Shown here: in pieces, positions 23,299 through 52,534 of the stretch
How the letters are laid out: every line of letters starts with the position of its first letter
Position numbering within the stretch: the stretch's first letter is position 1
Origin: Methanomassiliicoccaceae archaeon
Lineage (GTDB): Archaea > Thermoplasmatota > Thermoplasmata > Methanomassiliicoccales > Methanomassiliicoccaceae
Reading direction: 5' to 3'
NCBI GenBank assembly: GCA_963728405.1
Contig: CAVSJV010000013.1
Location: 64,001-128,000 of the forward strand
DNA length: 64,000 nucleotides
The notes under the pieces: generated by a model
The model's input: the letters and a program-made list of their open reading frames with translations, nothing else
Databases searched by the model: none
Told to the model about the DNA's origin: nothing
Translations under genes and position numbers: made by a program

Positions 23299-24595
23299 AT
23301 GTTCGAACAGGCCCCAGGCTCCTTCGACACCAATGTGCGCTCGTTGTCATCAGCGGGAGCGCTCCAGGTACCGGCGGGGTCACCCTGCGTCATTTGCAAA
23401 GGGTCACGGAACCTGTGTGGGAAGGACCGCTGCCCACTGATGATAAAGTTCTACTCTCATTCCCGTACCAAGACTCTCATCGACTCGCTGGACCTGGCGG
23501 GGATGTCTCCCCCAGGCATCTTTGTCGGCCGGTATGGTTATCCGAAGGTCGACGTCGGACCCCTGGTCCCTCCGATGATGGGCGACACATCGATAATGGA
23601 CACGCCTGAGCGGTGGGTGGGTAAGTCGATCGACGAGATCGTGGATTTCCGATTCAACCTGGTCCGAGGAAAGCATCGCATCGATGCTACCGACTTCGAT
23701 AAGTTCGGCCGCATCGTTGATTACACCAGAGACCTGGCCTTATCCACCAATCCCCTGGAGGTGGAGGCAAAATTCCAGAAGAAGCCGTCTGGCCGCCTGG
23801 TCCTGGACGATGAGGTCCAGCCCTTTGGTCCGTCTGCTCGTCTGAAGGATATGACCATCGGGAATCCCCGTTATGATCAAAGGGTCGAGAAGGCGTTCTA
23901 CGACACTGACCTAAAAGCGACCGAAGCCGTGAAAGGGCTTTACCGGAACGGTGTGCTGATATCAAAGATCCAGAAGGCTTTCTCTGTCGGAGCGTTCGGC
24001 ATAAACAAGAACCGTCGTTTCGTGCCCACCCGATGGTCCATCACCGCGGTCGACGATATCCTGGGCAAGGACCTGCTGAAGGTGACCAAGCGGAACCCGC
24101 TCATCGAGGACTGGCGCGTCTACAGCTGGGAGATGCTGGACAACCGTTGGAACATCCTCCTAATGCCCACCACCTGGAAGTACGAGCTGATCGAGGCGTG
24201 GTACCCCAATACGACCTGGAATCCCATGGGGCAGGGCATTGAGATCATCAGCTCGCATGAGTTCTACGAGGGGCGTAAGGAGTACGCGGAGATCGGGGGA
24301 TGCTATTACGCGGCCAGGCTGGCGGTGAATGAACTGCTGACCGCCGAGCGACGCCAGGCCGGGGCGGTCATCTTCCGGGAGGCGCACCCTGGTTACGTCA
24401 TGCCGGTGGGAGTTTGGAACTGTCCGTGAGAACGTCAGAGCGGCATTGAAGACCGTTCCCCGGCGTTTCGAATGCCTGAACCAGGCATTGCAGCACGTCA
24501 CCTCCCACATGGATATCCCGCTGGAGACGTGGATCAGGAACTCTGGGGTACTGATGGATATGTTCACCCAGCGGAGGTTGGATGACTATGTCTGA
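23299..24595 (+). CDS. nreA: Nre-family DNA repair protein (frameshift near 24420)
   Basis: CVICKG..LCG..RCP, SPPGIFVGRYGYPKV, VPTRWSITAVD, GGCYYAARL, C-terminal PIP box QRRLDDY. Confidence 0.9.
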
Positions 24596-28755: not shown

Positions 28756-28760
28756 TCTTC

Positions 28761-28780
28761 AAACCTTTTTTCTTTTTTTT
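28761..28780 (+). terminator. Oligo-T terminator
   Basis: AAACCTTTTTTCTTTTTTTT just after the stop codon. Confidence 0.6.
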
Positions 28781-29099
28781 ATAATAATCAACGATCGGAT
28801 TATCTTGAAAAATGATTGATCCTATCACAAGATCTAGCGGATAGTTTTGGAGGAGCCCGAAGGTCATTTTCGAAAATTCTTACAAAAAAGTATCATCATC
28901 TGTGCCATTGAACAGAAATTTCACTTACATTTGCTGGCAACGAATGAGCTCTCGATCCATTATGTAATTTCATTAATGCATATATAATTACAAAGATAAT
29001 TGTAAATTTACATGAGCCAGTAGAAAATGGAGAAAAAATATATTCCTACTTATCGTATAAGTAATAAATAAAAATATGATAAAGAGAGAAGCTTTACTA

Positions 29100-29516
29100 T
29101 TATTGCTTCTCTATTTTTCCTTTCTTCCCTTTTGAAATATCTAAACCATAGTCCGATTGTTTTGCATAACAATCAGTAAGGACTAATTGTGTGCCTATCT
29201 TGACATCGAGCTTTTCGGGGAGCTCGATATCATCATCCCAGAGGGTCAAACGGCACGTACCGGTCTCATCCTCAACATCCAAGTTCCTGACCTTGCCCTG
29301 CCCACCGGTCCGCTTATTGAATGTCTTAGCTTCGTTTATCTTAGTGACCTTCACCACTGCAGAGGCCTCTTCCCGGTCTTTGAGATCGGCGATTTTCTTT
29401 GTTACCATATTAACTCCTCCTTTTTCCAGAACCAAGCGGCGTATGGTGGCGTCATCCACCAGCCCCCCGAACTCTTCACGGAGCCTAGCCATCTTTGATT
29501 CTAGACTTTCATTCAT
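29100..29516 (-). CDS. Single OB-fold ssDNA-binding protein (RPA/SSB-like)
   Basis: KTFNKRTGGQGKVRNLDVEDETGTCRLTLWDD; N-terminal EEFGGLVDD helical segment. Confidence 0.85.
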   Translation of the reverse strand: MNESLESKMARLREEFGGLVDDATIRRLVLEKGGVNMVTKKIADLKDREEASAVVKVTKINEAKTFNKRTGGQGKVRNLDVEDETGTCRLTLWDDDIELPEKLDVKIGTQLVLTDCYAKQSDYGLDISKGKKGKIEKQ

Positions 29517-29734
29517 TCAAGGAACTCATAAACTATGTGCCATTAAACTGTTGGTTATGTAATGCAGGGAAATATAATAGCAAGATACGTAAACAGCTAT
29601 ATATTATAAGTATATTACAATATTGTACCATAATGTACAACCAAGGTAACACTAAATTTTAACTCCTGGTGATGATTCGAGTATGGGATGCACTCGAGGG
29701 AACGTCACCTCGTCCACATTCGTAGTGTGTACAA

Positions 29735-30553
29735 ATGCGCGCCGCCATATATGCACGGGTTTCCACGGATGATCAGGCTAAAGAAGGCTTTAGCATACCG
29801 GCCCAGCTAAAGCGCCTTCAGGCGTATTGCAAGGCCAAAGGCTGGGATATCTGCTCTGAATATGTTGATGAGGGTTTTTCAGGCCGTGATACCAATAGGC
29901 CAGCATATCAAAGGATGATGGGCGAGAGAGAACGTTGGGATGTGATATTGGTGCTAAAGATGGACCGTATCCACCGTAACTCCAAGAACTTCACTCAAAT
30001 GATGGATGACCTGAACAGTTGGAAGAGGCAGTTCAATTCCATGCAGGAGAAATTCGATACCACCTCGGCGATGGGGAGGTTCGTGATGGACATTATCCAA
30101 CGTATTGCTCAGCTGGAATCGGAGCAGATCGGTGAACGGGTAAAGGTAGGCATGACTCAGAAGGCCAAAAGGGGCAGTGGCTACCTTGGCTCACCCGATC
30201 CCTATGGCTACGAGGTCGAGAACGGTCAACTAAAGATCATGGACAAGGAGGCCGGGGTTGTCCCGTCCATCTACCACGCCTATATGATGGGCTTCTCGCT
30301 CGATGAGATCGCAAGGAAGCTCAACGAGAGGGGCATCCCGGCGAAAAAAGGTGGCCCCTGGAGCAAGCAGATGATCAGTAAAGTTCTCCGAAATCCAATT
30401 TACTGTGGATATGTCCAGTGGGATGGTCATCTTATCAAACTGGATTACTTCACTCTGATATCTGCCGGAGGCTACAATCTGATCCAAGATCTTATGCAAG
30501 AACGGCGCCGCAACCGGTCAGGTAATCCTCATCGCCATCTGGAGGCCGTATAG
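29735..30553 (+). CDS. Serine recombinase 1 (resolvase + recombinase domain, 272 aa)
   Basis: YARVST, DEGFSG..RP, KMDRIHRN, AQLESE, PYGY, LRNPIYCG. Confidence 0.92.
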   Translation: MRAAIYARVSTDDQAKEGFSIPAQLKRLQAYCKAKGWDICSEYVDEGFSGRDTNRPAYQRMMGERERWDVILVLKMDRIHRNSKNFTQMMDDLNSWKRQFNSMQEKFDTTSAMGRFVMDIIQRIAQLESEQIGERVKVGMTQKAKRGSGYLGSPDPYGYEVENGQLKIMDKEAGVVPSIYHAYMMGFSLDEIARKLNERGIPAKKGGPWSKQMISKVLRNPIYCGYVQWDGHLIKLDYFTLISAGGYNLIQDLMQERRRNRSGNPHRHLEAV

Positions 30554-30554
30554 G

Positions 30555-31373
30555 ATGGTTAGGGCGGCCGTTTATATCAGGGTCTCTACTGAGGAGCAGG
30601 CGGAGGAGGGTTTCTCCCTGGAAGCGCAGGAAGATCGGTTGCTGGCCTACTGTGAGGCTCAGGGCTGGGATGTGGCTGGAGTTTATGCCGATAAGGGCCA
30701 TACTGGCCGCAAGATCAACACCCGTGACGCTTACAAAAAGATGCTGGATGATAGGGGTCTTTGGGATACGATTCTGGTGATGAAGATGGACCGTATCCAC
30801 CGTAACTCCAAGAACTTCATGATCATGATGGAGGACCTGGAGAAATGGGGCAAGAAGTTCACCTCCATGCAGGAAGAGCTGGACACATCCACATCCATCG
30901 GCCGATTTGTGGTGGACATGATCCAGCGTATCGCTCAGCTAGAATCTGAGCAGATCGGTGAGCGAACGTACATGGGGATGGCCCAGAAAGCTGAGACCGG
31001 CGGGCTCCTGGGATTCAACCCACCATTCGGCTATGAGATCGCCAATAACGATCTGAGTATCATCGAGGGCGAAGCCTCGGTGGTCAAGGAGATATTCGAA
31101 CTGTACAGCTCGGGCGGATCAATGAATGCCATTGCTATTTATCTCAATGGCCGCTCGATTTCCACCCGGAGGGGCGGTCGGTGGACCCTGTATTCGATCA
31201 GACAGATATTGCACAACCCGGCCTACGCAGGCTACCGGCGTTGGGATGGCTTTCTGGTCCCCAGCAACCATGTGTCCATCGTGGACCTGGCCGCCTTCAA
31301 CTATGTTCAGGAGTTATCCGCGAAACGGACAAAAGACCCCCGAAAGAGGACGGTCAAGAAACTGATCCCTTAG
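30555..31373 (+). CDS. Serine recombinase 2 (paralog, 272 aa)
   Basis: YIRVST, KMDRIHRN, AQLESE, PFGY, LHNPAYAG. Confidence 0.92.
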   Translation: MVRAAVYIRVSTEEQAEEGFSLEAQEDRLLAYCEAQGWDVAGVYADKGHTGRKINTRDAYKKMLDDRGLWDTILVMKMDRIHRNSKNFMIMMEDLEKWGKKFTSMQEELDTSTSIGRFVVDMIQRIAQLESEQIGERTYMGMAQKAETGGLLGFNPPFGYEIANNDLSIIEGEASVVKEIFELYSSGGSMNAIAIYLNGRSISTRRGGRWTLYSIRQILHNPAYAGYRRWDGFLVPSNHVSIVDLAAFNYVQELSAKRTKDPRKRTVKKLIP

Positions 31374-52182: not shown

Positions 52183-52534
52183 AAAGGTTGCCCGCTCTTT
52201 CGCACCATCTCTTGGCTATCTACGATTATTGGCTCCGATCAAGGGCATCCGATTGGAGTCATCATGTGATGGCCTGGACTACTCCACCTCAACAGGGCGA
52301 TTGATGGGAAACATCCTGGCGTCCGTGGTGGAGTTCGAGGGTCAGATCATGGTTGAGCGAACGAAAGAAGAGCGGGCATAGTCAGCAAAGGATGGACACT
52401 TTCCAGGAAGACCAAATGTGGAAGTTGATCTTGAGAAGTTCTTGGAACTTCTGAAGCAGCCGGGCATGACCAGGGCCAAGGCTTGTAAGTTACGTCGTCC
52501 AAAAAGTCCTATACAGACCGATCGAAAAGAGTGA
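52183..52534 (+). pseudogene. Serine resolvase/invertase remnant
   Basis: GLDYSTSTGRLMGNILASVVEFEGQIMVERTKE..GRP and HTH-like end; N-terminus missing, internal stop. Confidence 0.75.

Follow-up and report, generated by a model that had tools for sequence, protein, structure and literature searches.

A conserved tandem pair of short serine recombinases as a candidate for chromosome dimer resolution in the XerA-less order Methanomassiliicoccales

A whole archaeal order that includes gut methanogens, the Methanomassiliicoccales, is without the tyrosine recombinase XerA but carries, at a fixed chromosomal place, a strongly conserved pair of serine recombinases. The two genes, here called rec1 and rec2, are described from a stretch of 64,000 nucleotides (the window) of a Methanomassiliicoccaceae archaeon, the source genome (GenBank assembly GCA_963728405.1, contig CAVSJV010000013.1, positions 64,001 to 128,000 of the forward strand), and from comparisons with genomes of the same order, class and phylum. 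The distributions of this type of recombinase and of XerA are near-exclusive, which is a new result, and the pair is the best candidate in this order for the chromosome-untangling job that XerA does elsewhere. The explanation favoured here, to which we would give about an even chance, is that of a domesticated serine-recombinase system that replaces XerA/dif in chromosome dimer resolution, acting with a single subunit in other lineages and with two subunits in the Methanomassiliicoccales.

The recombinase pair and the absence of XerA

Both genes are found on the forward strand, rec1 at 29735..30553 and rec2 at 30555..31373, the second starting 1 nt past the stop codon of the first. Each encodes a protein of 272 aa with the same architecture, that is, a Resolvase catalytic domain (PF00239; E 1e-38 in rec1 and 1e-36 in rec2) and, in the place that follows the long alpha-E helix in large serine recombinases, a Recombinase domain (RD; PF07508; E 2.5e-17 in rec1 and, over positions 3-101 of the 102 of the model, 6e-20 in rec2). 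The two proteins are paralogues, with 51% identity over 261 aa (E 3e-100), and the motifs YxRVST..Q, DRxxR and GRFV..IQRIAQLESEQIGER are present in both. Their C-termini extend only 15-28 aa beyond the RD; a Pfam scan gave no match to a zinc-ribbon family in either of them, and a coiled coil is absent too. In large serine recombinases, the coiled coil embedded in the zinc ribbon governs synapsis and directionality. The closest solved structure is the catalytic domain of the TP901-1 integrase (E 7e-27). Among NCBIfam models, the best match is CcrB (E 1.6e-44; 152.5 bits against a cut-off of 900), with an alignment limited to positions 8-238 of 542, and CcrA is also matched (E 5.5e-30; 104.8 bits against a cut-off of 700). 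A Pfam match to the helix-turn-helix family HTH_62 in the C-terminal half remains below threshold (18 bits against a cut-off of 27). From these matches, rec1 and rec2 are read as enzymes of the large-serine-recombinase type that end after the RD. An earlier interpretation of the window made from its letters alone (the sequence-only reading) had described just such a pair of intact paralogues with catalytic motifs, both stopping short of the zinc ribbon and coiled coil, and the open reading frame (ORF) list, the identity between the proteins, the Pfam matches and the partial CcrB alignment all agree with it.

The absence of XerA extends to the whole order. The XerA model NF040815, with a cut-off of 220 bits, was matched above this cut-off in none of the 41 genomes of the order, and in all four archaeal controls. 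In the source genome, the best match to this model reached 63 bits, and the best match to a general tyrosine-recombinase model 42 bits. Weaker matches to tyrosine recombinases are patchy in the order, and no tyrosine recombinase (PF00589) was detected in three of five f7 genomes 99% complete (one closed), a search in which 14 of 14 controls were matched. A sample of 151 genomes of the class, all at least 85% complete, was then classified by the presence of the recombinase (E<=1e-40) and of a XerA-like gene (E<=1e-50), which were found in 50 and 98 genomes, respectively. The recombinase occurs without a XerA-like gene in 46 of these genomes and the XerA-like gene without the recombinase in 94, with seven genomes having neither and four (G012, G234, G250 and G273) having both. 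At the family level, XerA-like genes are present in 15 of the 16 recombinase-free families, the exception being f61 (one genome), and in three of the 11 recombinase-bearing ones, namely f1 (one of two genomes), f53 (two of two) and f60 (two of four). The counts for family f8 include a genome flagged as unpublished (G293), and the pattern is independent of it. In a sample of 201 genomes of the phylum, 73 carry the recombinase (E<=1e-30) and 42 a XerA above the model cut-off, both genes being found together in only four (G165, G166, G171 and G226). As a separate observation, many of the XerA-like matches in families f12, f54 and f56 span only model positions ~88-263, in frames of ~186-286 aa; this short form, which recurs within each family, looks like a catalytic domain on its own.

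On the other hand, the tandem pair is present in 38 of the 41 related genomes, covering all seven families and all 15 genera of the order. The three missing pairs look like assembly gaps. One of these genomes (G006) is 67% complete and shows a partial match to the gene adjoining rec1, an OB-fold gene described below; we take this match to lie at a contig end. In the other two (G031 and G039, with no Resolvase match), the syntenic thermosome gene is found 1.9 kb and less than 1 kb from the contig start, which is the side on which the pair would be expected. The nearest proteins of rec1 and rec2 are named Methanomassiliicoccus or Methanomassiliicoccales in their sources, and the identity of rec1 declines with kinship, from 89% within the genus to ~55-60% across the order. 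Of the 20 loci compared, the 14 that belong to the order, from families f1, f2, f3, f4, f6 and f7, share all or part of one arrangement, namely Nre, radical SAM, thermosome, membrane protein, (OB), rec1 and rec2, and rec1 precedes rec2 in 29 of 29 relatives. No mobile-element genes were found among the neighbours scanned at the compared loci, and neither an inverted-repeat scan nor a search of the source genome revealed att-like repeats bounding the locus. In a quick maximum-likelihood tree of 66 sequences, for which a careful search is unfinished and from which four loci duplicating others of the same genomes were omitted, the 30 rec1 orthologues form one clade (SH-aLRT 91) and the 30 rec2 orthologues another (94). 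Each of these clades mirrors the family structure, which points to a single duplication predating the radiation of the order.

What is found in each genome is therefore one conserved, vertically inherited chromosomal recombinase locus. The mobile and patchy occurrence that characterizes large serine integrases is not seen, given the number of genomes with the pair, its housekeeping context and the agreement of the clades with taxonomy. A patchy, att-bounded occurrence in relatives was looked for as the outcome contrary to the domestication proposed by the sequence-only reading, and the pair turned out to be order-wide, syntenic and outside att-bounded elements, so that a domesticated chromosomal system, as opposed to a prophage integrase, is strongly supported. 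One genome (G011, 77% complete) contains, besides an intact copy on C38, a degraded and split second OB-rec1-rec2 copy with two TGA stops (G011:C54:2058-4294), a second locus that could be either a duplication or a strain mixture.

Both genes are under purifying selection. All 30 rec1 and all 30 rec2 orthologues keep the catalytic motifs with little or no variation, and the lengths of these 60 proteins fall between 255 and 298 aa. Ratios of nonsynonymous to synonymous substitution rates (dN/dS) in six close pairs of genomes were 0.02-0.10 for rec1 and 0.06-0.14 for rec2, two more distant pairs being saturated for rec1. These data bear on the idea that the locus is what remains of an element integrated long ago, or a selfish module, which was fixed before the radiation of the order and is now without cellular function, or that it has been retained only as a DNA-binding regulator. 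Its domain type is indeed that of the integrases of phages and of integrative and conjugative elements, and its GC content is lower than that of the flanks; but such low dN/dS values, catalytic residues kept in every orthologue, a locus free of att-like repeats and element genes, and the conserved housekeeping context of the pair, and likewise of the single copy in other families, make this idea very improbable.

The two genes are also tightly coupled. The distance from the rec1 stop to the rec2 start is between -8 and +11 nt in all 29 relatives, 19 of which share an 8-nt overlap, and no genome with only one intact paralogue was seen among the 38 with the locus, the apparent exceptions being contig-edge or split copies, save for G027, in which the second match is closer to rec1 than to rec2. 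Constant co-retention and overlap are what would be expected of subunits made together, and suggest that the two proteins may act as a heteromer. Alternatively, each paralogue could work by itself as a homomer with a site or role of its own, one for example in dimer resolution and the other in regulation or at some other place. Full catalytic sets are kept in both, other families manage with a single copy, and fixed differences distinguish the paralogues in only four alignment columns, compared with 89 conserved identically in both, all of which would suit such a division; yet the constant order of the genes, an overlap typical of subunits needed in fixed proportion and the lack of single-paralogue genomes make it rather improbable.

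Chromosomal position, intergenic region and related loci

In the six closed genomes of the comparison, the distance between the pair and the best Orc1/Cdc6 gene ranges from 0.30 to 0.48 genome lengths (109-174 degrees), being 0.448 of the genome length in G012 (161 degrees), 0.477 in G008 (172 degrees), 0.389 in G143 (140 degrees), 0.484 in G098 (174 degrees), 0.302 in G138 (109 degrees) and 0.425 in G184 (153 degrees). The locus is thus approximately origin-distal in all of them, with the reservation that shared synteny makes the six genomes non-independent. For archaeal dif sites, distances of 122-144 degrees from oriC, with one case of 180 degrees, appear in passages of a review on Xer recombination (PMC5357621). 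In G098, the switch of tetramer polarity (including GTTG and GTTC) shows a broad peak at 830-950 kb, with its maximum at 891 kb, and the locus, at 861 kb, sits on its shoulder. GC skew was discarded as a terminus finder, as it behaved as noise in the source genome and in G008, and a polarity signal was obtained only in G098.

The 218-bp region between rec1 and the divergent OB gene (29517..29734; GC 0.358), studied through the sequence and an alignment of 19 relatives, holds both presumed promoters and is the most likely place for putative binding or crossover sites of the recombinases. On the forward strand, the alignments reveal an archaeal TATA-like element AAATTTTAAC followed ~22 nt downstream by GGGATGC (29685-29691; 29654..29691 for the whole arrangement), a motif that is near-invariant across relatives and that would correspond to the transcription start region of rec1. 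The leader that follows GGGATGC measures 47 nt in the window and 39-48 nt in its genus. In genus g3 and family f7, rec1 starts at the very ATG contained in GGGATG, and elsewhere (the leaders of L009-L027) an insert of 32-55 nt parts GGGATGC from a rec1 ORF that starts with ATG, GTG or TTG, CTG being apparently the start codon in three more distant relatives. Non-ATG starts together with a leader suggest a low and controlled expression of the recombinases. Three candidate explanations of the leader were tried, of which the first and the last were rejected and the second found no support. A bulge-helix-bulge intron joining GGGATGC to rec1 would have a trivial 4-bp central helix, owed to a repeated TGC, and an inner helix of 0 bp in 10 of 15 cases; for a conserved RNA structure, single sequences fold into hairpins, whereas 0 pairs result when 13 sequences are folded together with RNAalifold; and an upstream ORF from the ATG of GGGATG is conserved neither in frame nor in length (1-59 aa, in all three frames).

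Between the two promoters lies a palindrome, TTGTAC-N6-GTACAA (29623..29640), with arms of 6 bp, a candidate protein-binding site that occurs once in the window, where chance would give 0.04 matches, and that the closest relatives, L009 and L010, keep in part. A conserved block of alignment columns (29581..29599), with the genus-level 10-bp core GTAAMGATAC as read by eye, takes in the window the form of an imperfect palindrome around TACGTA (inverted repeat I21, 29577-29600). No dif-like conserved site was found. As for a res-like set of subsites, the 218-bp region offered only short palindromes and the conserved block, with no partner site in the source genome. Neither was a second copy of the flanking non-coding DNA detected in that genome, where the best blastn-short match is 15 nt long; this uniqueness is what a system with one site would show, and it argues against an invertase regulon. 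The clearest motif upstream of rec1, the TGTCWGACA..GTCWGA repeats of families f3, f4 and f6, was considered as a recombination site: exact copies occur only upstream of rec1 in the loci of these families, and yet the motif could not be established as such a site.

Downstream of the OB gene, a second AT-rich non-coding spacer (28756..29099; GC 0.294) shows no tandem repeats and has no copy elsewhere in the source genome. Against a GC content of 0.548 for the whole window, both spacers are indeed very AT-rich, as had been noticed from the letters. The OB gene itself (29100..29516, reverse strand) encodes an RPA-type single-OB protein of 138 aa, with matches under the model cut-offs to NF012035 (E 1.7e-19) and to the Pfam tRNA_anti-codon OB family (E 3.6e-4), in keeping with the divergent gene for a single-OB single-stranded DNA-binding protein (SSB) that the sequence-only reading had placed there. 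Among its 129 homologues, all those with an organism name belong to Methanomassiliicoccales or Euryarchaeota, and a second, larger RPA-like gene is present elsewhere in the source genome. Its dN/dS is 0.01-0.08 in the six close pairs. The synteny suggested for an SSB-rec1-rec2 unit holds for the pair and only in part for the OB gene, which adjoins rec1 divergently in 30 of the 38 pair-bearing genomes and in four of the seven families (f1, f2, f4 and f6), its position being occupied by DUF2124 in f3 and by PIN, glyoxalase or other genes in f7. The OB gene is a lineage-restricted RPA-like paralogue and, because of this inconstancy, a frequent neighbour and no defining part of the system.

The wider surroundings of the pair in the window are of a housekeeping nature. 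Pfam scanning of the neighbours between 21.3 and 37.4 kb, which covered most ORFs of at least 80 aa and left a few small ORFs unscanned, gave UbiA, polyprenyl synthase, Nre, radical SAM, thermosome, proline-dehydrogenase-like, DUF190 and MBL-fold proteins, and no phage, transposase or conjugation families. The Nre gene (23299-24429, forward strand; Nre_N E 8.6e-101) lies upstream of the block formed by the thermosome and recombinase genes, as a neighbour conserved across the order. The absence of mobile genes, as originally claimed, stands for these neighbours and has to be qualified further away: 21 kb downstream, at 52184-52396 on the forward strand, there is a decayed piece of a small serine recombinase, corresponding to the C-terminal part of the catalytic domain and interrupted by stops including TAG. 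This fragment has no relation to rec1 and rec2.

Beyond the order, the recombinase usually occurs as a single copy, likewise embedded among housekeeping genes, either S8e, SRP19 and proteasome alpha or TruD, RpoL and KsgA, with flanks that are conserved within family f27. Several particular loci were noticed in the course of these comparisons. In G208 (family f24), the single-copy recombinase is directly followed by a gene of 253 aa (L052:9794-10555) in which an HNH endonuclease domain (PF01844; E 3.4e-9) takes the place of the resolvase catalytic domain and precedes a Recombinase domain (PF07508; E 6.7e-21). In G222 (family f47, from another class), a tandem recombinase pair is preceded by two arrays of 27-bp tandem repeats with 7.4 and 5.7 copies (L117:1-411 and 500-690), opposite in orientation by eye, the first being cut off by the contig end; a small ORF after these arrays looks AbrB-like, also by eye, and f27 has a comparable small ORF ahead of its recombinase. 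Moreover, no more than 1 kb separates the recombinase gene from the contig start in 10 of the 73 phylum genomes, against 4.0 expected from contig counts with rounded genome sizes (P about 0.005-0.008). The contig-end pieces have a GC content of 0.26-0.37 in nine of the ten cases and of 0.51 in G228, and one contains tandem repeats; the excess could stem from assembly difficulty or from structural heterogeneity. Finally, outside the window, a perfect inverted repeat of 69 bp spanning 299 bp (G000:C5:500705-501003), which may be an invertible segment, lies immediately beside an open frame of 964 aa with a tyrosine-recombinase domain match (C5:501095-501592).

Proposed function and its alternatives

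The most likely pathway for a role in dimer resolution would start from a single ancestral gene, as still found in other Thermoplasmata families, which would have been duplicated in the ancestor of the order to give two paralogues, both catalytically intact and co-translated. Rec1 and Rec2 would most likely form a hetero-oligomer, in the same way that XerC/XerD arose from a single Xer. This hetero-oligomer would bind a single chromosomal site in the half farther from the origin, probably in the AT-rich region beside its own genes, and would synapse the two copies of that site carried by a chromosome dimer. The dimer would then be resolved through the concerted double-strand cleavage and subunit rotation that are typical of serine recombinases, with the unlinking of catenanes as a possible further role. 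With neither zinc ribbon nor coiled coil, the enzyme would have to draw its selectivity for resolution from accessory binding sites or from DNA topology, as in small resolvases. In its full form, the proposal states that the serine recombinase is the dimer resolvase of the Methanomassiliicoccales and of several other Thermoplasmata families, that it displaced XerA/dif by non-orthologous replacement and that it was duplicated into an obligate two-subunit enzyme; to this set of statements, taken together, we give somewhat less than an even chance. Of the two roles that the sequence-only reading had contemplated, chromosome dimer resolution gains independent support from a distribution nearly exclusive with that of XerA and from a position far from the origin, although no recombination site was identified. 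Local inversion found no support, the compared loci of the order being collinear and the source genome having no second copy of the flanks and no family of repeat-flanked segments.

A number of observations weigh against dimer resolution by the pair. First, the exclusivity with XerA is not strict, given the four class genomes with both genes, and under a lenient threshold (E<=1e-40) a XerA-like match appears in 30 of the 73 recombinase-bearing genomes of the phylum, including eight of family f27. Some of these lenient matches are multi-copy and resemble element integrases, and others may be true XerA; where XerA-like genes co-occur, as in f27, the single-copy recombinase may therefore have a different or additional role. 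In addition, the counts ignore kinship, and the independent events of XerA loss and recombinase gain could be few. Second, the chromosomal position is soft: the distance is only 109 degrees in G138, all six closed genomes have a second Orc1/Cdc6 paralogue (a weak one, below the cut-off, in G012), the GC skew is noise in the source genome and in the 400 kb around the G008 locus, and the cumulative skew computed over the window does not turn at the locus. Third, no recombination site was identified in the searches described above, the motifs upstream of rec1 vary between families, and copies of TGTCWGACA..GTCWGA with one mismatch are found upstream of unrelated genes and within a NikR-like coding sequence. 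Among sequencing runs, a single DNA run shared 7% of the sampled words, and no RNA run was listed. Lastly, we know of no serine recombinase that resolves chromosome dimers, so that the proposal is without precedent.

Part of this evidence would also suit a conserved housekeeping serine recombinase with another DNA-rearranging job, such as promoter switching or a programmed inversion or excision at a distant locus, in which case XerA would have been lost independently of it. The coexistence of the single-copy homologue with XerA-like genes in some genomes (f27, f53), the family-specific repeated motifs upstream of the recombinase gene, the two inverted arrays of G222 and the excess of genes near contig starts, if it reflected structural heterogeneity, all go in this direction. 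Nevertheless, the 14 loci of the order have collinear genes around the pair and show no inversion, the flanks have no second copy in the source genome, and no family of segments flanked by inverted repeats exists there, as no 10-mer is common to the arms of at least three loci among 277 inverted-repeat pairs. The contig-end pieces, for their part, are merely AT-rich or in one case carry tandem repeats, which break assemblies anyway. Above all, another job would leave unexplained the pattern of 46 and 4 genomes against 7 and 94 (recombinase-bearing genomes without and with a XerA-like gene, against recombinase-free ones), and it seems unlikely on the whole, if clearly less so than the two alternatives discussed before.

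Relation to known systems and significance

Dimer resolution by Rec1 and Rec2 would resemble the XerA/dif system in being chromosomal, effectively single-locus, vertically inherited and origin-distal, with a distribution that is nearly complementary to that of XerA. The chemistry and the fold are unrelated: XerA is a tyrosine recombinase that proceeds through a Holliday junction, whereas serine recombinases make concerted double-strand breaks with a 2-bp stagger. Moreover, no site with dif-like conservation was found for rec1 and rec2, whose function we infer. According to passages of two reviews, XerA functions without FtsK (PMC8371274, PMC5357621). As with the XerC/XerD pair on the one hand and the single XerS, XerH and XerA on the other, the serine recombinase is a single gene in some lineages and a set of two intact paralogues in another. 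The genes of XerS and XerH are described in one of these sources as linked to their site (PMC5357621), and the same gene-site linkage is proposed here for rec1 and rec2. In contrast, xerC and xerD are usually unlinked, whereas rec1 and rec2 are adjacent and overlapping, and belong to another enzyme family.

Within the serine family, the CcrA/CcrB recombinases of SCCmec are likewise encoded by an adjacent gene pair and provide the best NCBIfam match, but rec1 and rec2 lack the zinc ribbon and coiled coil, are not carried by a mobile cassette and score far under the cut-offs of both models. Resolution selectivity without a translocase is a property of the Tn3 and gamma-delta resolvase-res systems and of plasmid multimer resolvases such as ParA of RK2, Sin and beta. 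Their genes, like rec1, lie beside an AT-rich divergent promoter region, which in the case of rec1 could hold its own site and serve autoregulation. Small resolvases and invertases (Tn3, gamma-delta, Hin, Gin) differ in measuring ~180-200 aa and ending in a small helix-turn-helix domain, against the 272 aa with PF07508 of rec1 and rec2. Also unlike Tn3 and gamma-delta, there are no demonstrated res-like subsites for the pair, and the proposed substrate is the whole chromosome.

To our knowledge, there is no exception to the resolution of chromosome dimers by tyrosine recombinases of the Xer family. In the passages available from the Xer review, this process is described only with such enzymes (PMC5357621), and a part of a 2021 review states that archaeal serine recombinases have been seen in transposons and "never fully investigated" (PMC8371274). 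A literature search that did not cover subscription journals found no description of the pair, of the loss of XerA in the order or of dimer resolution by a serine recombinase.

If the proposed role is true, the pair would represent the first cellular chromosome-resolution system based on serine recombinase chemistry, and two recombinase superfamilies would be interchangeable for a core function of the cell cycle. Rec1 and Rec2 would also be natural minimal versions of a "large" serine recombinase, made of the catalytic domain and the RD, whose directionality would be set without zinc ribbon or coiled coil, and their duplication would be the serine-family parallel to the step from one to two subunits in Xer recombinases. 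The pair also offers a concrete, testable answer to the question of how archaea without XerA segregate their chromosomes.

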